Shown here piece by piece: positions 34,717 through 59,280 of a DNA stretch of 64,000 bases. The stretch is from Escherichia coli (GTDB taxonomy: Bacteria; Pseudomonadota; Gammaproteobacteria; Enterobacterales; Enterobacteriaceae). Under the pieces are notes generated by a model. That model did no database searches. It was given only the letters and a program-made list of their open reading frames with translations, and was not told where the DNA came from. The DNA lies in NCBI RefSeq assembly GCF_029227855.1, contig NZ_CP074356.1. One strand, written 5' to 3'. Each line of letters starts with the position of its first letter. Position 1 is the first letter of the stretch. Made by a program: the position numbers and the translations under genes.

Positions 34717-34851
34717 TGATGACTCCGGGTAACGATGTCAGGTTAATGGCAAAAGGCGTGCCAATATTTTTTATGTGAATAATCAATAGATTGAAAAACA
34801 GGCGGAAATGACGTTTCCGGTCTGGCGGAAAAAAGCCTGCCGCAGAAAGCA

Positions 34852-34920: not shown

Positions 34921-35835
34921 TTACTGCAGCAGGCTGGAAACCATGCTGGACATGCTGTTGGACTGTTTCAGCATGGTGATGCCGGTCTGCATCAGCACCT
35001 GTTGTTTGGTCATGTTGGACGCTTCCGTCGCGTAGTCGGTATCCATGATGTTACCGATAGCAACTTCGGTGTTGTCCTGCATGCTGGTCAGGTTATTAGC
35101 CGTGTCGTTCAGACGGTTGATAGACGCACCCAGTTTGGACTGGATCTGAGACACGTCATCCATCGCGGTAGAGATGCTGGTGATCATCTGGTTAGCCGAG
35201 CCAGACGCAGTCAGCTCAGTACCGCCAGAAACGCCTGCGGTGCCCGTGGTGTCAGCCTGATCCGCACTAAAGGAGCTGCTGATAGCAGAAAGATCAGTCA
35301 CCAGGGTATTCAGCTGGCTTGAAATATTCACGGTCATGGTGTCGGAAGATTCCGCGCCCACCTGGAAAGTTACCGCGCTCTGGAACAGACCGTCAGTACC
35401 GGTGTTGCTGGTGCCGGAAACACCGAACAGGTTGGTGCCGCCGTAAGTGGTGTTTTGCAGCATGTCAGACATCTGCTGGCCCAGTTCGTCGTATTCGTCC
35501 TGCATCGCCTGCAGGTCGTCGTCGCTGTAGGTGCCGTTCGCTGCCTGAGTTGACAGGTCTTTCATACGACCCAGCACGTCAGACATTTCGTCGAACATGC
35601 TGTCAGCGGTTTGCAGCATCGCGGTGGCATCATTGATGTTGCTCAGCGCCACCCCCATACCGCTGGACTGTGCTGTCAGACGGTTAGCAATTTGTTTGCC
35701 TGCGGCGTCATCGGCAGAAGAGTTAATCCGGTTACCTGTCGCCAGGCGTTCCATAGATGTAGACAGAGAAGAGCTGCTTTTGCTGATTGCATTAACGGCG
35801 GCCATTGAGGCGTTATTGGTGTTAATAGATAACAT
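34921..35835 (-). CDS. lafA: Lateral flagellin
   Basis: Flagellin N-terminus MLSINTNNASMAAVNAI and C-terminal ...SLLQ; RBS AAGGAG; the track ORF has a 22-codon upstream extension. Confidence 0.9.
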   Translation of the reverse strand: MLSINTNNASMAAVNAISKSSSSLSTSMERLATGNRINSSADDAAGKQIANRLTAQSSGMGVALSNINDATAMLQTADSMFDEMSDVLGRMKDLSTQAANGTYSDDDLQAMQDEYDELGQQMSDMLQNTTYGGTNLFGVSGTSNTGTDGLFQSAVTFQVGAESSDTMTVNISSQLNTLVTDLSAISSSFSADQADTTGTAGVSGGTELTASGSANQMITSISTAMDDVSQIQSKLGASINRLNDTANNLTSMQDNTEVAIGNIMDTDYATEASNMTKQQVLMQTGITMLKQSNSMSSMVSSLLQ

Positions 35836-37219: not shown

Positions 37220-38197
37220 TTACCCCAATAAATTCCTCACCGTCTGACTGGAAATTCGCGCCTGACCATTCACCGCCTGCAATAAAACTTGATAGTTATG
37301 ATTGGCGCTATCCAGCACGCCGCCGAGATTTTCCGACGCCTGCACGGCGCTTTCCGTTTGCGGGAAGCGCGACATGCCGTCGATCAACTGCCGCGCCTTT
37401 TCCTGCTGTACCGCCATCTGCACACGCTGCTGATTAATGCTTTCTAACGTCTGAGAAATCCCCGCTCCGCCCTGTTGCAGGCTTTGCACTAAGCGGTCCG
37501 CCTGCGACGGTTCGGCAAAGGTTTTTAGTGGCATAAACGCTGATTTATCACCATCGGTGCGCACGCTTAGGGTGCTTTCAATGTTGGGCCACTGTTTTTC
37601 AGTGGTGGAGAAACTTATACCATCGGCGTTTTGATGCATCTGCACGCCCACGCGGCGCAGGGCGTTGGTCAGCCGCGTCTGGTACTGCCCAGCGCTGTCA
37701 TCCTCAGACAGCATCACCGCCGAAAGCTGAGTCTGCCGCCCGTCAGAGACGCTGAACATGCGCGTTCCCGGCGTGGGATTGTGTACGAGATTCGCCAGAT
37801 CCGGCGAGTGAAAAGTCACCCGCGCTTCCCCCTGCAACACTGGCTGCAACTGGCGGTCCACCGCACCGCCGGAAAGCGCGGTGCGTTTGTCCAGCATCTG
37901 CATCAGCGCCGAACTCTGCGCCTGCCCGCCCTTACGCTGGCTATGACGATAATCGAGCAACTGCTGCTCCAGTTGCCCGAGATAGTGATCCGCCTGCTGC
38001 AACGTGGTGAGCTGGTCGTTAAGCTGCACGCTGTAACGCTGCGGGCGAGTGGTAATCAGCGGCGAGGCCGGATATTCACTCGCCGTCGCCGGGAGTTTTT
38101 GCCGCACCTCCTGAGTGGGCGCAACGGTTGACGACGATACCGCAACGCTATGCGCGCCGCCGGTGGCGAGTGACGAAGATGTAAATCCGACCTGCAT
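37220..38197 (-). CDS. lafW: Flag-2 lateral flagellar protein LafW (function unclear)
   Basis: 325 aa Gln/Ser-rich protein immediately downstream of lfgL on the same strand. Confidence 0.5.
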   Translation of the reverse strand: MQVGFTSSSLATGGAHSVAVSSSTVAPTQEVRQKLPATASEYPASPLITTRPQRYSVQLNDQLTTLQQADHYLGQLEQQLLDYRHSQRKGGQAQSSALMQMLDKRTALSGGAVDRQLQPVLQGEARVTFHSPDLANLVHNPTPGTRMFSVSDGRQTQLSAVMLSEDDSAGQYQTRLTNALRRVGVQMHQNADGISFSTTEKQWPNIESTLSVRTDGDKSAFMPLKTFAEPSQADRLVQSLQQGGAGISQTLESINQQRVQMAVQQEKARQLIDGMSRFPQTESAVQASENLGGVLDSANHNYQVLLQAVNGQARISSQTVRNLLG

Positions 38198-47066: not shown

Positions 47067-47082
47067 GGCAATTACCGTGCCA
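47067..47082 (-). promoter_or_regulatory. Sigma-54 (-24/-12) promoter of the lfgB rod/hook operon
   Basis: Minus strand reads TGGCACGGTAATTGCC, a near-perfect match to TGGCACG-N4-TTGC, about 35 nt upstream of the proposed lfgB start. Confidence 0.55.
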
Positions 47083-47929: not shown

Positions 47930-48205
47930 ATGAAAATCACCCCGACTATGCCAGGCAATCGCCCGACAGCCACAACGGCAGGCTCCAGCCAGCCGAGCAA
48001 AACTACGGCGACCACCACGACGCTGAGCGCCGACGACATTACCCAGGCGGGATTGCAGTCTGCCCAGCAAACGCTGAACGACCAGCAAGAGAGCGATATC
48101 GACAGCGATAAAGTGGCGCAAATGCAGGCGATGCTGGCCTCCGGCAGCCTGCAAGTGGACACCGAACAGTTAGCCAGCGACATGCTGAGTTTTTTCCAGA
48201 ACTAA
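47930..48205 (+). CDS. lfgM: Anti-sigma-28 factor (FlgM-like)
   Basis: 91 aa Ser/Thr/Gln-rich protein immediately before the FlgN-like gene. Confidence 0.7.
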   Translation: MKITPTMPGNRPTATTAGSSQPSKTTATTTTLSADDITQAGLQSAQQTLNDQQESDIDSDKVAQMQAMLASGSLQVDTEQLASDMLSFFQN

Positions 48206-48217
48206 GAGGCCGATGAA

Positions 48218-48646
48218 GTGAGTATCCGGTTACAACAGGTGAAGGCGTTGTTGCAGGGAATTCGTGACGATGACGCGCTGTATGATTCCCTGCGCGAACT
48301 TCTCCAGCGTCAGCGGATCTGCATGATTCGCCGCGCCAGCGAAGAGCTGCTGGCGGTAAACGAGGAGATAACCCATCACTATGAGCAGTTGCATGGGCAT
48401 AGCCATCAGCGGCACAGCCTGCTGAAAATGCTTAATGTCAGTGTAAATCGTGACGGTCTGGCGCAGGTTTTTGCCTGGCTTCCGGCGGTACAAAAAGCGG
48501 CAGCACAACAGTTGTGGCAACGCCTTGAGCAAAAAGCGGAACGCTGCAAAGCCTACAACGACAAAAACGGCGAGCTGTTGATTCGCCAGTATGAATTTAT
48601 TCAGTCTTTTTTAGGTAGCGAAGCTGATTTTCTCTATCAGGAATAA
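48218..48646 (+). CDS. lfgN: Flagellar export chaperone (FlgN-like)
   Basis: 142 aa helical protein after the FlgM-like gene. Confidence 0.65.
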   Translation: MSIRLQQVKALLQGIRDDDALYDSLRELLQRQRICMIRRASEELLAVNEEITHHYEQLHGHSHQRHSLLKMLNVSVNRDGLAQVFAWLPAVQKAAAQQLWQRLEQKAERCKAYNDKNGELLIRQYEFIQSFLGSEADFLYQE

Positions 48647-48773
48647 CGCGAATACCTTCCCCCATCGCGGAAATGGATTTTCCGCCTGATTCACAATCCT
48701 TTGTTTTTGATTATAAAAATTCCCGGCACGCTTATTGCACATTCCGCAAAGTAATAAAGACTGGAAGCCACCT

Positions 48774-49703
48774 ATGAGTTTTATTGAATGTTACGAACCG
48801 GAATACGTGCGCAATTTTATGACGCAATATCCCGATTCGCCTTTGTACATCCGCAAGGTGTGGAAAAACGAGATTCGCCAGAGCCTGATGCTGACAGAGC
48901 CAGAAAGCTGCGAAGCGGTGCTCAACGATGCCAGGGCCTTTGATTTACAGCTCACCTACCGCCCGGCGGAAGATAATGCCGCAGAACTCTCCGCGCGCGA
49001 TGCGATAGTAAACCAGGTCATTTTGAGCACCCTTACGCTCCCCGATTTACCCCCGGAGCTTTCACTGTACGCCGTCGGGATTTTGCTCTCCCGCGCCAGC
49101 AAAATGCCGGGCAGAGACGGAGATATTCTTGCCCGCTTGACGACGCTGCCACAGGCGCTGGCCGCTCATGCACAAAAAGGCACGCTACAGGCACAGTTCG
49201 CCCAGTTGCCGCCTGTACCACAGCTGGCGCGCCAACTGGTGACGCTGCTCGGCAGTTGTGCGTTTGACTGGTCGATTCTGCCGGAAAGCCCGCGCAAAAC
49301 TTCCCTGCCGTTGCAGATGCCTTTGCTGGCGCTACATGACGCCAACAGCGAAGCCCTGTTGCAACAGCAGCTTCAGGCACAGTGGCAAACCACCTGGCAA
49401 CAGCATTTTGCCACCGCGCCCTGGATGATGTGTAACTGGCTGATTTACCGCGTTTACCATGAGGTGATTGGACAGGCAGACGGAGCAGATTATTGCCCGC
49501 TGGTGTGCGATTTTTATTTTATCCGCACGTTAATCAGTTTATGGACGCTGGATGGTTCTCCGCTGCGGAAGGAGGATATTTTCGCCCTTTTTGCGGTGTT
49601 TGAACGCTGGCGAGAGAGTGAAAATGCGCTGTTTATTCGCCAGCAAATTCAGTCGTTATGTGCCGCCGACCCGCTGCTTTCAGCGTTTTCGCTGCTGACG
49701 TGA
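48774..49703 (+). CDS. Flag-2-associated hypothetical protein
   Basis: 309 aa from MSFIECYEPE with RBS GGAAG; no recognisable domain; track ORF starts at 48735. Confidence 0.5.
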   Translation: MSFIECYEPEYVRNFMTQYPDSPLYIRKVWKNEIRQSLMLTEPESCEAVLNDARAFDLQLTYRPAEDNAAELSARDAIVNQVILSTLTLPDLPPELSLYAVGILLSRASKMPGRDGDILARLTTLPQALAAHAQKGTLQAQFAQLPPVPQLARQLVTLLGSCAFDWSILPESPRKTSLPLQMPLLALHDANSEALLQQQLQAQWQTTWQQHFATAPWMMCNWLIYRVYHEVIGQADGADYCPLVCDFYFIRTLISLWTLDGSPLRKEDIFALFAVFERWRESENALFIRQQIQSLCAADPLLSAFSLLT

Positions 49704-49720
49704 AGCCGCTCTCGATCGGT

Positions 49721-49751
49721 CCCCTCGCCCCTTCGGGGAGAGGGTGAGGGG
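49721..49751. repeat. GC-rich imperfect palindrome (CCCCTCGCCCC..GGGGAGAGGGTGAGGGG)
   Basis: Shares the GGGGAGAGGGT..GAGGGG motif, in inverted orientation, with the element at 59434-59472. Confidence 0.4.
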
Positions 49752-49809
49752 CAAAGCACGCACAGCCCTCCTTACCCATCAAATTAACCCCTTAACTCAC
49801 CTAAACACC

Positions 49810-52281
49810 ATGCCAACACCAACCCTCATCAAAACACTCGCCACTCACCGCGAAAAACCGTTCGTCAGCGTCGTCACGCCCACATGGAACCGTAGCGCAT
49901 TCCTGCCGTACCTGCTCTATATGTACCGCTATCAGGATTACCCGGCAGACCGCCGCGAACTGGTCATCCTCGACGACTCGCCGCAAAGCCATCAACACAT
50001 CATCGACCGCCTGACCAATGGCACACCGGAAGCCTTTAACATCCGCTATATTCATCACCCGGAAAAACTGCCACTGGGCAAAAAACGCAACATGCTCAAC
50101 GAACTGGCGAGCGGCGAATACATCCTCTGCATGGACGATGACGACTACTACCCGGCAGATAAAATCTCTTACGCCATCGCCATGATGCAAAAACACCGGG
50201 CGCTCATCTCCGGTTCCGACCAGATCCCCATCTGGTACAGCCACATCAATCGCATCTTCCAAAGCCGCAGCTTTGGCTCACATAACATCCTCAACGGCAC
50301 CTTTTGCTATCACCGTAACTACCTGAAAAAGCACCGTTACGACGATGATTGTAATTTAGGCGAAGAGAAAAGTTTCACCAACAATTTCAGCGTTAACCCG
50401 CTACAACTGCCCGGCGAGCGCACGATTCTGTGTATCTCGCACAGTCACAACACCTTTGATAAAGATTTTATTCTCGGGGCTAGCACGCCAGTAAACGCGG
50501 CGCTTACGGATATCGTCCGCGATCCGCTGCTGCGCAATGCTTATCTGAGTCTGCATAACGCCACTCATCACCAGGCGATCGATCAGGTCGTACTGATCAA
50601 TCTGGATAAACGCCCGGATCGCTTACAGCAGATCCGTGAAGAACTCACATTGCTGTATATTCCGCCTGAGAAGATCACCCGCCTTGCCGCCAGTGAAAAT
50701 GAAAACGGTCAACGGGGTCGCCGCCAGTCACACTTGCAGGCGCTGCGCCTGGCGCAACAGCACGGCTGGCAAAACTACCTGCTGCTGGAAGATGACGCAG
50801 TTATTCTCAAGCAGGAGAAACATATTCAGGTACTGAACACGCTGCTCGCGAGCCTGGCGAAAATTCCCTGGCAGGTGATGATCCTTGGCGGCGAAATTTC
50901 GCAGGGAACGATGCTAAAAAGTTTGCCGGGGCTGGTGCACGCGCGGGACTGCCGCAAAGTGTGCGCTTATCTGGTGAACAGTCGCTACTACCCGCAACTG
51001 GCGCAGCAGATGAGCCACAATGAACACTCGCTGGAAGACGGCTGGCAGCCGCTGCTACGCGCCGACAAATGGCTGGCCTGTTACCCGAGCCTTAGTTATC
51101 AGCGACCGGGCTTTAGTGATATCGAGAAAAAAGTGACCGACAACATTGCTCACTATTTCAATAAGTTACCCGTTATCACAAAGCCATCCGCATTACCCAT
51201 CGCCGACACCATCGGCTTTTTTATGGAAACCTCCTTCCACTACGCGCTCTACCGCCCAATCATCACTGCTCTACAGGTGCAGGGGCAGAGCTGCACGCTG
51301 GTGATCAATGACCGCGTGTTTAAACCGTTTCTTGATGAGATGCTGGAAACACTGAAAAACATCGACGATCCGCAGCTTAAAGGAATGCGCTTATCTGAAA
51401 TGCAGGCACACGGTCAGCGGGTGAAATGCCTGGTCAGCCCCTACCACACGCCCGCGCTCAATGGCCTGGCAGCGGTGAACGTTCGCGCCATGTACGGCTT
51501 AGCCAAAGAGACGTGGAACCACGCCGACTGGAACCGTTTTTATCAACGCATTTTGTGTTACAGCCACTACAGCCAGCGGGCGCTGGCGCATTTCGGCAAT
51601 GCAAAAGCAGTCGGCAACCCGCGCTTCGACGCCTGGCATAACGGCACGTTTGCCCGCACTCTGCCGGAAAATATTCAACCCGATTCCCGTAAACCTACGG
51701 TGCTCTATGCCCCCACGTTTGGCGCATTAAGCTCCCTGCCCCACTGGGCAGAAAAATTAGGCCGCTTAAGTGGCAATGTGAATCTGATTTGCAAACTGCA
51801 CCACGGCACCTGCTCGCGCCCGGAAGAAGCGGCATCGCTGGCCCTGGCGCGCAGGCATTTAAAACAGCGCACCGACTCCGCCCGCCACACGCTGGCGCTG
51901 CTGGCAAAGGCCGATTACGTGCTGACCGATAACAGCGGCTTTATTTTCGATGCTATTCACGTTGATAAGCGGGTGATCCTGCTCGACTTTCCGGGCATGG
52001 CAGCGTTGCTCGACGGTGAGAAAAGTTACTCCACGCCGGAGAGCGCCGATCAGCAAATCCGCGAAATATTGCCGGTGGCTCATGATATGGCAGAGTTGCG
52101 TTACTTGTTGTCAGAGGCGTTTGACTGGGGGGCGGTGCAGGCGCGGCTTACGAAGATTCGCCATCACTATTGCGATGCGTTTATGGATGGCAAAGCGGGA
52201 GAACGGGCGGCGATGGTGATTGTGGAGGCGCTGGCGGACAAGGAATCGTCAGGGATATGTCGATATAATTCGATTTTTTAA
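49810..52281 (+). CDS. Multidomain glycosyltransferase: GT2 domain, GT25-like domain, and C-terminal CDP-glycerol glycerophosphotransferase (TagB/TagF-like) domain
   Basis: GT-A signature VSVVTPTWNR...ILDDSP with a DDDDYY acidic motif; middle LINLDKRPDRL; C-terminal VLYAPTFG (TagF-type YAPT motif); track ORF starts at 49744 inside the GC-rich repeat. Confidence 0.65.
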   Translation: MPTPTLIKTLATHREKPFVSVVTPTWNRSAFLPYLLYMYRYQDYPADRRELVILDDSPQSHQHIIDRLTNGTPEAFNIRYIHHPEKLPLGKKRNMLNELASGEYILCMDDDDYYPADKISYAIAMMQKHRALISGSDQIPIWYSHINRIFQSRSFGSHNILNGTFCYHRNYLKKHRYDDDCNLGEEKSFTNNFSVNPLQLPGERTILCISHSHNTFDKDFILGASTPVNAALTDIVRDPLLRNAYLSLHNATHHQAIDQVVLINLDKRPDRLQQIREELTLLYIPPEKITRLAASENENGQRGRRQSHLQALRLAQQHGWQNYLLLEDDAVILKQEKHIQVLNTLLASLAKIPWQVMILGGEISQGTMLKSLPGLVHARDCRKVCAYLVNSRYYPQLAQQMSHNEHSLEDGWQPLLRADKWLACYPSLSYQRPGFSDIEKKVTDNIAHYFNKLPVITKPSALPIADTIGFFMETSFHYALYRPIITALQVQGQSCTLVINDRVFKPFLDEMLETLKNIDDPQLKGMRLSEMQAHGQRVKCLVSPYHTPALNGLAAVNVRAMYGLAKETWNHADWNRFYQRILCYSHYSQRALAHFGNAKAVGNPRFDAWHNGTFARTLPENIQPDSRKPTVLYAPTFGALSSLPHWAEKLGRLSGNVNLICKLHHGTCSRPEEAASLALARRHLKQRTDSARHTLALLAKADYVLTDNSGFIFDAIHVDKRVILLDFPGMAALLDGEKSYSTPESADQQIREILPVAHDMAELRYLLSEAFDWGAVQARLTKIRHHYCDAFMDGKAGERAAMVIVEALADKESSGICRYNSIF

Positions 52282-52355
52282 ACATGTCGTTGGAATACGT
52301 TTATGCCATCGACATGTTTTAGGGATATGTCGAAAAAACGCGATTTTTTAAACAT
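52251..52355. repeat. Two 35-nt direct repeats flanking a hairpin at the 3' end of the glycosyltransferase gene
   Basis: AGGGATATGTCGA...CGATTTTTTAAACAT at 52251-52285 and 52321-52355; between them the inverted repeat AAACATGTCG...CGACATGTTT. Confidence 0.5.
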
Positions 52356-52410
52356 ATTTAACATAGCCAAACGGCAGACGGCATCATCTTCTCTCACCGC
52401 GGGAATTAAA

Positions 52411-52815
52411 TCAGTAGGTGGCTGATTTACCCCTAATCACCTCAATGATCCCCGTCGTCGATACCGATGGCGTACGGGGAAAATAGACCACCTCACAGAC
52501 ACACGAGAAATCGTCAAACTTCCCCGCCCAGTCATCGCCCATCACCAAAATATCCGCACCGTACCCCCGCAAATACTCCGCTTTCTGCTCCAGCGATTCC
52601 TCCAGAAATACGCCCTCCACGCACGCCAGCCCGGCGATAATCGCCATGCGGTCATCCTGATGGTAAACCGGTGCCCTGCCCTTTTTGGCGATGTTCAAGG
52701 CATCGGACGATACGCCGACCAGCAACCGTTCGCCCAGCGTGCGGGCGCGTTGTAAAAGGCGCAGATGACCGACGTGAAACACATCAAAGGTGCCGAAGGT
52801 GATGACCGTTTTCAT
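52411..52815 (-). CDS. Glycerol-3-phosphate cytidylyltransferase-like protein (TagD family)
   Basis: 134 aa; HxGH nucleotidyltransferase motif FGTFDVFHVGH; directly downstream of lfiJ on the same strand. Confidence 0.7.
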   Translation of the reverse strand: MKTVITFGTFDVFHVGHLRLLQRARTLGERLLVGVSSDALNIAKKGRAPVYHQDDRMAIIAGLACVEGVFLEESLEQKAEYLRGYGADILVMGDDWAGKFDDFSCVCEVVYFPRTPSVSTTGIIEVIRGKSATY

Positions 52816-52817
52816 CG

Positions 52818-53252
52818 CTACTCCGCTAATTTATGCCGTAGCCAGCACTGAACGGCAATGTCATCCACCGCTTTTTGCGCTTTCGCCGTGGCGCTTTCCT
52901 GCTGCTCGCGGCGTTTGTCGTCCAGCGTCAGGACCACCACTTTCTCTTCGCACGCCGCCGCCGTCAGGTTTTTCTGCATTCGCGTGGCTTTGATGTTAGC
53001 CAGCGTTTTTTCCTGTTCCTGCCAGGCGATCACCTTGCGCAGGGTGCCTTTGTAGCCGCTGACGTTTTTCAGTGATTCCACCGACGCCGCCGCGCCCGCA
53101 GACGTTTTCTCTACCAGGTAGCCTAACGCCTTGATATTGTTGTCATAGCCCGCGCAGATCTGTTTTTGCTTTGCCAGCTCGACAGTTTTGTCTTTGACCG
53201 ATTTATCCCGCAGGCGCTGCAACTGCGCCAGGGTGTCGATGATTTGTCGCAT
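52818..53252 (-). CDS. lfiJ: Flagellar export protein (FliJ-like)
   Basis: 144 aa coiled-coil protein after the FliI-like ATPase. Confidence 0.7.
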   Translation of the reverse strand: MRQIIDTLAQLQRLRDKSVKDKTVELAKQKQICAGYDNNIKALGYLVEKTSAGAAASVESLKNVSGYKGTLRKVIAWQEQEKTLANIKATRMQKNLTAAACEEKVVVLTLDDKRREQQESATAKAQKAVDDIAVQCWLRHKLAE

Positions 53253-53254
53253 GG

Positions 53255-54592
53255 TTACTGTTCTGCCTTTTTGGCACCAGGAAAGAGGATTTGCAGGCGG
53301 CTTTGCACCAGTTCCAGGGAGGCGGGTTCGCGCATCTCCTGGCGCAAAAATCGCTCGATAGCCGGGAACATTTTTACCGCTTTGTCGACGCTGGCGTCGG
53401 CACCTGCCACGTAGCCGCCGAGCGGGATCAGCGGTTTGATCTCCATATACGCGGCGTAGTTTTGCTTTAACGCACGGGCGGATTGCTGATGTTCCAGGCT
53501 GGTCACCTGATTCATGCAGCGGCTGATCGACTGGCCGATATCAATGGCCGGATAGTGCCCCGCTTCCGCCAGTTTGCGGGTTAATACGATATGCCCGTCC
53601 AGCACCGCACGGGCGCAGTCGACAATCGGATCTTGCTGGTCGTCGCCTTCCGCCAGCACGGTGTAGATTGCGGTCATCGATCCCGTGCTTTCGTTGTTGC
53701 CTGCGCTTTCGACCAGCTTGGGGATCATGCCGAATGCCGATGGCGGATAACCTTTGGTGGCGGGCGGTTCGCCGAGCGAGAGGGCAATTTCCCGCTGCGC
53801 CATCGCGTAGCGGGTCAGGGAATCCACCAGCAGTAAAACGTGATGCCCACGGTCGCGAAACCAGGCGGCGATGGAGTGGCACAGTTCGGTGGCTTTCAGG
53901 CGCATCAGCGGCGATTCATCGGCGGGCGCGACAACAACGATAGACTTTGCCAGCCCGTCCGCGCCCAGCGAGTGGTCGATAAACTCTTTCACTTCGCGCC
54001 CGCGTTCGCCAATCAGCCCGACCACCACAATGCCGGCTTTGGTCTGGCGGGTGATCATCCCCAGCAGCACGCTTTTCCCGACGCCACTGCCCGCCATCAG
54101 CCCGACGCGCTGGCCTTTGCCGATGGTCAGTAGGCCGTTGATCGCTTTCACGCCCACGTCCAGCGGTTCGTCCACTGAACGGCGGGTTAAGGGATTAACC
54201 GAGGGCGGTAGCGGCGGCAGAAGGTCGTTGCCGTTCAGGCGGCCTTTGCCATCCAGCGGTTCGCCGAGGCCATTCACCACGCGGCCTAACCAGCTTTCGC
54301 CAATCAGGATGTCGTGGGCTTTTTCTTCCGGGAAGACGCGCGCCCCCGCCATCAGGCCGACCGGCTGTTTAAAGGGCATTAAGTAGGTGATATCGCGATT
54401 AAAGCCCACGGCCTGCGCGTCGATAAGCGTGTGATTGGCGCTTTCGATGCGGCACAGCTGCCCGGTCATTAGCGGGCAGCCGACACTCTCCAGCAGGATG
54501 CCGTTTAGGCGCACCAGCCGCCCGGCGACGCGGGCCAGCGGGATCGACTCCAGCGAGCGCAGCGCGTTATCGAAAGCGGAAAAATCACTCAC
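53255..54592 (-). CDS. lfiI: Flagellum-specific ATPase (FliI-like)
   Basis: 445 aa; Walker A GSGVGKS; F1-ATPase-like fold. Confidence 0.9.
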   Translation of the reverse strand: MSDFSAFDNALRSLESIPLARVAGRLVRLNGILLESVGCPLMTGQLCRIESANHTLIDAQAVGFNRDITYLMPFKQPVGLMAGARVFPEEKAHDILIGESWLGRVVNGLGEPLDGKGRLNGNDLLPPLPPSVNPLTRRSVDEPLDVGVKAINGLLTIGKGQRVGLMAGSGVGKSVLLGMITRQTKAGIVVVGLIGERGREVKEFIDHSLGADGLAKSIVVVAPADESPLMRLKATELCHSIAAWFRDRGHHVLLLVDSLTRYAMAQREIALSLGEPPATKGYPPSAFGMIPKLVESAGNNESTGSMTAIYTVLAEGDDQQDPIVDCARAVLDGHIVLTRKLAEAGHYPAIDIGQSISRCMNQVTSLEHQQSARALKQNYAAYMEIKPLIPLGGYVAGADASVDKAVKMFPAIERFLRQEMREPASLELVQSRLQILFPGAKKAEQ

Positions 54593-58293: not shown

Positions 58294-59280
58294 TCAGGAG
58301 AAAACTTCGATACCTTGCTTGCGCATGGAGGCCAGTCGATAGCGCAGTGCGCGCGGGGTAATGCCTAACAGGTTGGCGATTTTGCTGCGGTTGCCCTGAT
58401 ATTTACGCATCAGGTCGGCGATATATTGATATTGCGCGCTTCGTCCGTGCTGGCCTAAATCGCAGGTTTCAGCAATGTGGACGGCGGGCTGAACAGGCCA
58501 TTGCAGTTCGCTGCGGTCGGCAACGTCCGTTTCCGGCAGGCCTAAGGCGTCCGGGTAAATTACGCCGTCGCGGTTTAAAATCATTCCCCGCTGAATGGCG
58601 TTCTCCAGCTGGCGCACGTTGCCGGGCCAGCGGTAATTGAGCAGCGCCCGGCGGGTAGATTCTGAAAGGGTGATATTTTTCACCAGCACCGTGGAGTATT
58701 TTTTAATAAATGACTCTGCCAGCGGAATAATATCGTTCAGACGTTCACGCAGCGGCGGCATGGTAATAGGGATTACCGCAAGACGATAATAGAGATCTTC
58801 ACGAAAACGCCCTTCGGCGACTTCCTGCTCAAGGTTTTTATTGGTACAGGCAATCAGGCGAAAATTGAGTTTAATTTGTCGGTTGCTGCCTAATCGCTCA
58901 ACCTGCTGTTCCTGCAATACGCGTAATATTTTGACCTGTAGCGCCAGCGGCATATCGCCAATTTCATCGAGCAATAAGGAGCCGTTATTCGCCAGTTCCA
59001 TTTTTCCTGGCACGCTGGCAATTGCGCCGGTAAATGCACCTTTGTCGTAGCCAAATAAGGTAGATTCCAGCATATTTTCCGGGATCGCCGCGCAGTTCAC
59101 GCCGACATAGGGTGCGCTTTCATTTTCACCAAAGGCTACGGTGTGAATATATTTTGCCACGCACTCTTTGCCCGCGCCGGTTTCGCCCTGAATGAGCACC
59201 GGCACGTTAAAGGCGGCGACACGCTTTGCCAGAGTAAAAGCGTTAATGCTGGAAGCGGCAGTTGCAATAAGTTCAGACAT
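58294..59280 (-). CDS. lafK: Sigma-54-dependent transcriptional activator (AAA+ domain plus C-terminal HTH; no receiver domain in the called ORF)
   Basis: Walker A GETGAGKE, GAFTGA motif, C-terminal Fis-type HTH; the ORF starts directly at the AAA+ domain. Confidence 0.8.
   Translation of the reverse strand: MSELIATAASSINAFTLAKRVAAFNVPVLIQGETGAGKECVAKYIHTVAFGENESAPYVGVNCAAIPENMLESTLFGYDKGAFTGAIASVPGKMELANNGSLLLDEIGDMPLALQVKILRVLQEQQVERLGSNRQIKLNFRLIACTNKNLEQEVAEGRFREDLYYRLAVIPITMPPLRERLNDIIPLAESFIKKYSTVLVKNITLSESTRRALLNYRWPGNVRQLENAIQRGMILNRDGVIYPDALGLPETDVADRSELQWPVQPAVHIAETCDLGQHGRSAQYQYIADLMRKYQGNRSKIANLLGITPRALRYRLASMRKQGIEVFS

Follow-up and report, generated by a model that had tools for sequence, protein, structure and literature searches.

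In the model for type A flagellin glycosylation in Clostridioides difficile 630, the glycosyltransferase (GT) CD0240 adds a core N-acetylglucosamine (GlcNAc), the proposed cytidylyltransferase CD0242 makes the cytidine diphosphate (CDP) donor, and the TagF-like protein CD0244 is proposed to transfer the phospho-substituent; without CD0244, FliC carries GlcNAc alone (PMC10714395). In Pseudomonas aeruginosa, FgtA joins GT and TagF-like parts in one protein for b-type flagellin, which carries a deoxyhexose with a phosphodiester-linked moiety (PMC10714395). Here we describe a related gene module at 48774-52815 of a 64,000-nt stretch of Escherichia coli contig NZ_CP074356.1 (assembly GCF_029227855.1); the whole stretch is called the window. 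The module is "variable region 1" (VR1) of the Escherichia Flag-2 (lateral flagella) locus, flanked by lfgN and lfiJ, and its three genes encode a LafV-like protein of 309 amino acids (aa), an 823-aa transferase and a 134-aa TagD-like protein. The transferase was found to hold three catalytic domains, and comparison of related loci points to a pathway in which CDP-glycerol would be made and its glycerol-phosphate transferred.

The region has been described before. De Maayer, Pillay and Coutinho (2020; PMC6993521) reported VR1 between lfiJ and lfgN with the same genes, namely GT2-1 (828 aa, 222 strains, given as pfam00535 only), TagD (133 aa, 235 strains) and LafV (342/592 strains, a predicted methylase), together with TagB1-8 in 65 strains, and they put forward teichoic-acid-type glycopolymers as one part of the flag-2 flagellin glycan. 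An earlier note on the present stretch had read these genes as a glycerol-phosphate-type glycosylation module; the idea is correct but already published (PMC6993521). What is added here are the hidden domains of GT2-1, the covariation of TagD with TagF motifs, split forms of the enzyme, and a LafV without the iron-sulphur (Fe-S) motif that travels with the GT core.

Results

The transferase gene (49810-52281, + strand) encodes 823 aa from an ATG that is annotated identically in the 99.7%-identical E. coli JNEC-KY178. An AlphaFold2 model of the protein (mean predicted local distance difference test score, pLDDT, 79.5) showed three domains at about residues 1-250, 258-455 and 463-813. Three catalytic domains account for all 823 residues: a GT2 domain of the GT-A type (residues 1-255, 49810-50574, +), a GT25-like second GT-A domain (residues 256-462, 50575-51195, +) and a divergent TagF-like domain of the GT-B type (residues 463-823 with the stop codon, 51196-52281, +). 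The same three domains had been named in the earlier note, and the architecture was confirmed on the basis of orthologues, profile searches and predicted fold. At Pfam cut-offs for the 823-aa protein itself, GT2 passed and the other two fell below, with support from domain-wise profiles. PF00535 matched residues 20-134 with an E value of 8.3e-18 and 65.3 bits against a gathering cut-off of 23.3, the nearly invariant DDDD motif at 109-112 provided the DxD of a GT-A fold, and the PDB sequence matches of this domain were GT2 enzymes such as AvpGT and TarS. When the full 823-aa protein was compared with PDB by phmmer and as a profile, the GT2 region alone was found, and domain-wise profiles and fold searches were needed for the rest. 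Among 35 family members, Pfam matched GT2 in 33, Glyphos_transf (PF04464, E <= 0.01) in 17 (best 2.1e-8) and GT25 in 4 (best 1.1e-6).

For the middle domain, the Pfam GT25 family (PF01755) gave no match at E <= 0.01 on the whole 823-aa protein, and the domain searched alone scored 13.5 bits, under the cut-off of 24. Six stand-alone relatives of 213-233 aa, recovered at 1e-35 to 1e-62 with a hidden Markov model (HMM) of this domain, were scanned, and all six passed the GT25 cut-off with 33-41 bits. The predicted GT-A fold was closest to solved GT25 enzymes, and the acidic E327-D328-D329 (EDD motif, 327-329) was kept. The best fold match of residues ~1-470 was the human collagen galactosyltransferase COLGALT1/GLT25D1.

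The C-terminal domain showed a GT-B fold with the C-lobe motifs common to TagF, TarL and Cps3D. Its conserved motifs were GNPRFD (602-607), YAPTFG (633-638), KLHHGT (662-667) and TDNSGFIFD (706-714). When its profile was compared with PDB sequences, Cps3D was the best match (2.8e-11), followed by TarL (2e-8) and TagF (9e-6), with alignments that span GxPRxD, YAPT and TDxSS; one orthologue is named by NCBI as a bifunctional GT2 / glycerophosphotransferase. Of the catalytic histidines of TagF, H584 aligned by HMMER with H664 of KLHHGT, which was conserved in all TagD-linked loci. H444 of TagF aligned with H546 in one hhalign alignment (probability 94%), at a position that was Tyr in 26/31 aligned homologues, and another nearly invariant His, H571, lies close to it. 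When MAFFT was used to align the C-domain and two stand-alone TagF-like proteins, Y562 came out as the H444 equivalent; the N-lobe was misplaced in that alignment, and H546 is preferred and still uncertain. PDB entry 3L7M is titled "H548A", but its deposited sequence differs from wild type at 584 (His to Ala), which fits the published H584.

Flagellin passes unfolded through a narrow type III channel on export, and the flagellin glycans known so far are short. This argues against a reading of the 823-aa enzyme as a polymerase, in which GT-A and TagF-like parts would act in alternation and build a teichoic-acid-like poly(glycosyl-glycerol-phosphate) on flagellin or lipid. Such a reading draws on the capsule polymerase Cps3D, which the C-domain profile matched best among PDB sequences, and on the order of GT-A followed by TagF-like domain, as in the polymerising CslB, Cps1B, Cps12B and Ccs2 (PMC5974469). 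However, kps capsule export genes and a tetratricopeptide repeat (TPR) domain are missing at the window locus, and the flagellar analogue CD0244 adds a single phospho-substituent (PMC10714395). We regard a polymerase as quite improbable, and no less so the particular form in which a processive enzyme would place the poly(glycosyl-glycerol-phosphate) chain on lateral flagellin with the 309-aa protein, a FliB_C-only protein (see below), as flagellin-recognition subunit. If that form were true, a Gram-negative flagellar filament would carry a protein-linked teichoic acid, and FliB_C would be a recognition module common to flagellin methylases and flagellin glycosyltransferases.

The TagD-like gene (52411-52815, -; 134 aa) encodes a protein of which residues 1-129 aligned with residues 1-128 of Bacillus subtilis TagD (1COZ) at E = 3.5e-32 and 46% identity. 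Staphylococcus aureus TarD (2B7L) matched over the full length at E = 4e-27, and the next family, ethanolamine-phosphate cytidylyltransferase, matched part of the protein at E = 1.8e-15. HxGH (H14/H17), K44, R55, GDDW and RTxxxSTT (as RTPSVSTT) were all kept, and CDP-glycerol synthesis is the likeliest activity to judge by these alignments. The earlier note had put this gene, as TagD-like, at the end of the operon that runs from lafK through lfiE to lfiJ; both the full-length TagD identity and the gene junction bear this out. Since the TagD-like ATG follows the lfiJ stop codon by 2 nt (junction TAG-CG-ATG) and has GGAG 5 nt before it, the gene reads as the last, translationally coupled cistron of lafK-lfiE-F-G-H-I-J, of which lafK is the first gene.

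Homologue neighbourhoods and 65 loci (one genome per species) were compared with a local HMM scan, which gave 38 loci with a GT2+GT25 core. All 38 were flagellar, across Enterobacterales and Burkholderia; FliJ or FlgN was encoded nearby in 35 of them, and flagellin or motAB genes marked the other three. A FliB_C gene stood within 300 bp of the GT core in 35/38 loci. The TagD-like gene was present in 22/38 GT-core loci, every one with an intact TagF-like domain or gene, and in 0/6 loci that had no TagF-like part (Fisher p = 7e-4, with no correction for phylogeny). Three loci (L009, L027 and L029) had the fused domain and a fully visible VR1 with no TagD, and in all three the TagF motifs were degenerate (APKLD, APSLD or APALN; HH changed to QH or HN; GDNRALLFD). 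The pathway logic of the earlier note, that CDP-glycerol is made and then transferred, was upheld by this covariation (22 versus 0 loci) and by the motif decay without TagD, and the covariation lends indirect support to CDP-glycerol as the putative donor of the TagF-like domain. The decayed domain may be a pseudo-enzyme or repurposed. It was seen at full length in Atlantibacter (L009, 7001-9466), Leminorella (L027, 10001-12472) and a Citrobacter-labelled genome (L029, 9989-12451). Loci with a KpsS/C-like C-terminal domain instead had no TagD.

Split forms of the enzyme were also found. In Paramixta the gene order was fliJ - GT (478 aa) - FliB_C - TagD-like - Glyphos_transf (414 aa), and in Rahnella and Erwinia oleae the E. 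coli-type C-domain was encoded by a separate gene (364-368 aa, E 1e-131) that adjoins the TagD-like gene. The E. coli protein is thus the product of a gene fusion. In Enterobacteriaceae bacterium RIT691 (L025, 7205-14481), TagD, FliB_C and fused GT genes stood in a row with a ~302-aa flagellin gene on each side. In Burkholderia oklahomensis (L004, 8001-14617) the GT core and FliB_C were followed, in this order, by genes for a methyltransferase, a HAD hydrolase, an IspD-like nucleotidyltransferase and Glyphos_transf, so that the module stood directly upstream of a 300-aa flagellin gene, with motAB after it. The enzyme set of this locus equals the C. difficile cd0240-cd0244 gene set, which suggests, by analogy, a type-A-like glycan on Burkholderia lateral flagellin. 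Taken as sequences, these loci suggest a modular system, in which a conserved pair of GT core and FliB_C is combined with exchangeable donor cassettes: TagD with TagF-like; HAD, nucleotidyltransferase and methyltransferase with TagF-like; or KpsS/C-like.

Other arrangements were recorded in passing. A metagenome-assembled genome (MAG) of Plesiomonas sp. (L006, 8001-15618) encoded an 841-aa fused homologue with a GNTKYD motif variant, near motAB and next to NTP_transferase, GATase/Peptidase_C26 and PPDK_N/PEP-utilizer genes, a trio that we take to resemble the Cj1416/Cj1417/Cj1418 phosphoramidate pathway of Campylobacter jejuni. Fusions of a GT25-like domain with a canonical TagF-like domain (616-632 aa) were present in Pantoea wallisii (L037, 9947-11842) and an Enterobacteriaceae MAG (L046, 9977-11824), with no Flag-2 marker of the set used within 10 kb. 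In Akkermansia MAGs (L063, L065-L069, L071, L072 and L074), adjacent open reading frames (ORFs) of ~384 and ~139 aa with cytidylyltransferase-like N-termini lay directly 5' of a distant GT25-like gene. The record of "Chryseobacterium sp. 18061" (L021) showed an Enterobacteriaceae-type flag-2 locus laid out as in Citrobacter sp. 18056 (L022) from the same study, and is probably mislabelled or contaminated.

The same comparison bears on the possibility that the module is horizontally acquired, non-flagellar cargo in a recombination hotspot, where it would modify lipopolysaccharide (LPS), enterobacterial common antigen or another envelope glycan. VR1 has been described as a hotspot for cargo genes, the GC content of the module (0.52-0.56) dips below that of its flanks (0.57-0.62), and enzymes of the GT25 and TagF families mostly have LPS or teichoic acids as their targets. 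However, every GT-core locus was flagellar, the TagD-like gene is coupled to lfiJ, the FliB_C partner is adjacent in nearly all loci (35/38), and neither membrane segments nor lipid-carrier or flippase genes occur in the module; envelope cargo is thus highly improbable. A 19-residue hydrophobic segment was found in none of the three module proteins, which makes action in the membrane or the periplasm unlikely. The flagellar setting of the loci supports the earlier suggestion that the module plausibly acts on lateral flagellin, within which LafA as the target, and the product, are proposals taken up below.

The lafV-like gene (48774-49703, +) encodes 309 aa from ATG. The earlier note had left this ORF unassigned; it belongs to a known family, LafV or FliB_C-only. 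The NCBIfam FliB profile NF038110 matched at E = 3.6e-11 over positions 105-367 of 373 only, with 43.2 bits, under the cut-off of 85, and no full-length match was obtained. All LafV-like homologues found were 307-315 aa long and carried Pfam PF27117 (FliB_C) alone. The AlphaFold2 model (pLDDT 93) showed a small beta-sheet followed by a helical bundle, and a fold search with it against PDB gave no significant match (best E 0.16). In FliB, the N-terminal motif CX4CX3CC (C17, C22, C26 and C27) binds [4Fe-4S], and its mutation abolishes activity (PMC8598068). Neither the 309-aa sequence nor any of its Escherichia and Citrobacter homologues has the motif. The lateral flagellin LafA (lafA, 34921-35835, -; 304 aa from ATG; Pfam Flagellin_N and Flagellin_C) has only six lysines, at 19, 47, 92, 234, 277 and 290, and the stretch from 93 to 233 is free of them; substrate lysines of the FliB kind were thus not found in its presumably exposed domains. 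The central region of LafA (136-235) is 34% Ser+Thr.

Because the [4Fe-4S] motif is absent and LafA has no lysine in 93-233, the annotation of the 309-aa protein as "lysine-N-methylase" is probably wrong, as far as sequence can tell. The opposing reading, an active LafA lysine-N-methylase that works independently of the glycosyltransferase, draws on homology to the C-terminal two thirds of FliB, on the name used in RefSeq and by De Maayer et al., and on a catalytic site of FliB that has yet to be mapped by structure. We consider it unlikely in view of the missing essential motif, the score below the NCBIfam cut-off, the lysine-free stretch of LafA and the company of the GT core in 35/38 loci.

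Positions 48000-53300 of the window shared 99.7% identity with E. coli JNEC-KY178 and ~95% with E. coli 042. The region was present at >=80% coverage in 1250/5426 complete E. coli genomes (~23%), including the enteroaggregative strain 042, and its occurrence is not due to chance, since so many genomes hold the same region. Measured against four orthologues from Escherichia or Pseudocitrobacter, dN/dS of the transferase gene came to 0.11-0.15, that of the TagD-like gene to 0.07-0.10 and that of the lafV-like gene to 0.14-0.30; flagellar genes nearby, lfgA and lfgN among them, had similar values. The three module genes are under purifying selection. In RefSeq their products are named "hypothetical protein" or "lysine-N-methylase" (309 aa), "glycosyltransferase" (823 aa) and "adenylyltransferase/cytidyltransferase family protein" or "FAD synthase family protein" (134 aa).

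On the + strand VR1 is flanked by lfgA, lfgM and lfgN, and on the - strand by lfiJ, lfiI, lfiH, lfiG, lfiF, lfiE and lafK. lfiJ (fliJ-like; 52818-53252, -) matched Pfam FliJ and TIGR02473, and lafK (58294-59280, -) encodes a sigma-54-dependent activator (Pfam Sigma54_activat, E 6.9e-64, and HTH_8). A sigma-54-type promoter-like site, GGCACGcttaTTGCA (48725-48739, +), lies 35 nt before the lafV-like ATG and matches GGCAC-N5-TTGC exactly. The 64-kb window holds two other exact matches, one immediately 5' of lfgB (47068-47081, -) and one immediately 5' of a fliD-like gene (34749-34762, -). The count of matches was not significant, as 13/100 shuffles also gave 3. The positions of the sites, and not their number, are suggestive of flagellar-operon control, and the sigma-54 activator LafK is encoded in the same window. 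A scan for sigma-70 promoters and terminators gave nothing above shuffles.

The spacer between the lafV-like and transferase genes (49704-49809) contains a GC-rich element of ~50 nt, cccctcgccccttcggggagagggtgagggg. It is unannotated and present at 1-4 copies per genome in 2437/5426 E. coli genomes. Its predicted fold has no unusual stability (z -0.74), and we read it as a dispersed repeat and not as a specific regulatory structure. E. coli 042 has a longer spacer at the same site. Elsewhere in the window, a 325-aa ORF (37220-38197, -) between the lafA region and an lfgL-like gene had no Pfam match.

Discussion

From the domain identities, linkage, covariation and selection observed above, we infer a donor, an acceptor, an order of steps and a product. 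The account that we lean towards, with moderate confidence, is that LafA is O-glycosylated in the cytoplasm, in its Ser/Thr-rich centre, and that glycerol-phosphate from CDP-glycerol is added as well. The TagD-like enzyme would convert CTP and sn-glycerol-3-phosphate to CDP-glycerol, as its full-length identity to TagD predicts. The 823-aa enzyme would act in the cytoplasm, before export, on unfolded or chaperoned LafA. Its GT2 and GT25-like domains would place one or two sugars on Ser/Thr of the central region, and its TagF-like domain would transfer glycerol-phosphate from CDP-glycerol to a sugar hydroxyl with release of CMP, yielding a short phosphodiester-capped O-glycan. The FliB_C-only protein would aid the transferase, for example in flagellin recognition or scaffolding, and would not be an active FliB-type methylase. 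Expression would be tied to flagellar assembly, with the TagD-like gene as the last cistron of lafK-lfiEFGHIJ and with the lafV-like and transferase genes after lfgAMN, behind the sigma-54-like promoter.

Several observations count against this proposal. For the C-terminal domain of the 823-aa protein, the PF04464 match (residues 597-723) reached 16.7 bits against a threshold of 22.1. The His equivalent to H444 was found in Escherichia and Pseudocitrobacter only, most TagD-linked orthologues having Tyr. The test of TagD against TagF ignores shared ancestry, many of the loci being from Escherichia or Citrobacter; one locus (L026) has intact TagF motifs with no TagD in view, and two (L021 and L022) were not judged for TagD, as the other edge of the region lay outside the locus. 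The FliB_C-only protein is probably an accessory of the glycosyltransferase, a role to which its linkage points. In addition, we know of no demonstration of flagellin glycosylation in Escherichia, or of LafA modification there.

The TagD-like protein itself scored 112.3 bits with TIGR01518, under the equivalog cut-off of 165.4, and differs from B. subtilis TagD at K46 (Gly, flanked by K45 and R47) and W74 (Leu). In B. subtilis TagD, K44 and K46 have been implicated by mutagenesis in glycerol-3-phosphate binding. Because of the low TIGR01518 score and the loss of K46 and W74, another phospho-alcohol substrate is possible. The same architecture could then serve another donor, the TagD-like protein activating a non-glycerol phospho-alcohol or a phospho-amino compound that the TagF-like domain would transfer. 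In line with this, relatives of the GT core are paired with IspD-like, HAD and methyltransferase genes in Burkholderia and with NTP-transferase, GATase and PPDK-like genes in Plesiomonas, and C. difficile is proposed to use CDP-threonine (PMC10714395). However, the 46% identity to TagD extends over the full length, ethanolamine-phosphate cytidylyltransferase is a much weaker and partial match, K44, R55 and RTxxxSTT are kept, and the module holds no extra biosynthetic gene for an unusual substrate. Another donor is, for these reasons, rather improbable.

Under the conditions tested, E. coli EC958 did not express Flag-2, no LafA being detected by western blot (PMC4637896), which is a further point against activity on flagellin. 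Together with the frameshifted lfgC of E. coli 042, it is also what would be expected if Flag-2 were cryptic and the module silent or functionless in present-day E. coli. By contrast, lfgC is intact in the window (143 aa), the region is conserved in 1250 genomes, and the module genes evolve under constraint like that of the neighbouring flagellar genes (dN/dS 0.07-0.30). We doubt strongly that the module is such a relic.

With these points weighed, LafA glycosylation by the module, as read from its genes, would be a plausible first instance of a glycosylated flagellin in Escherichia. Flag-2 is also present in ST131 strains (PMC4637896). If active, the module would give lateral flagella with anionic glycerol-phosphate epitopes, with possible consequences for the assembly of the filament, its surface behaviour, the adsorption of phages and recognition by the immune system. 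For annotation, "GT2-1 / glycosyltransferase" becomes a three-domain GT2 + GT25-like + TagF-like enzyme, and the "FAD synthase family" gene becomes TagD-like.

Compared by description with the closest systems, the module is like the type A set CD0240-CD0244 of C. difficile 630 in having a GT, a predicted cytidylyltransferase and a TagF-like phosphotransferase together in a flagellar locus (PMC10714395, PMC4441256). C. difficile, unlike the window, has a proposed CDP-threonine donor, a methyltransferase and a HAD-type enzyme; in the window the TagD-like enzyme stands alone, the transferase is a fused polypeptide with a GT25-like domain in addition, and FliB_C is its partner. The enzyme resembles FgtA (PA1091) of P. 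aeruginosa PAO1, again by description, in joining GT and TagF-like parts in one polypeptide, whereas FgtA is accompanied by other accessory genes (PA1088-PA1090) and adds another substituent.

TagF-like polymerases of group 2 capsules are likewise Gram-negative multidomain enzymes with GT and TagF-like parts, and several of them use CDP-glycerol. However, they are encoded in capsule loci, are usually >1000 aa and have a TPR domain, whereas the window enzyme has two GT-A domains, lacks a TPR domain and is encoded in a flagellar context with no capsule locus. Compared with TagF of B. subtilis or Staphylococcus epidermidis, the membrane-association region is absent and the H444 position is variable in the window family; in contrast to the wall teichoic acid enzymes, the acceptor of the window module cannot be a lipid-linked teichoic acid. 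COLGALT1/GLT25D1 has the same tandem of GT-A domains with a GT25 second domain and also glycosylates protein, a resemblance of fold only (13-17% identity, sequence E 0.77). COLGALT1 acts on hydroxylysine and has a non-catalytic first GT-A domain; the window enzyme, unlike COLGALT1, keeps acidic motifs in both GT-A domains.

The 309-aa protein is like Salmonella FliB in its FliB_C homology and in being encoded in a flagellar locus. Unlike FliB, it lacks the first ~100 residues, including CX4CX3CC, and its presumed substrate has no lysine in 93-233. This also sets it apart from the description of LafV as a methylase (PMC6993521), the window protein being without the Fe-S motif. Finally, in the strain counts of the same study, TagD (235) outnumbers TagB (65), a mismatch for which the TagF-like and GT25-like domains hidden in GT2-1 would account.

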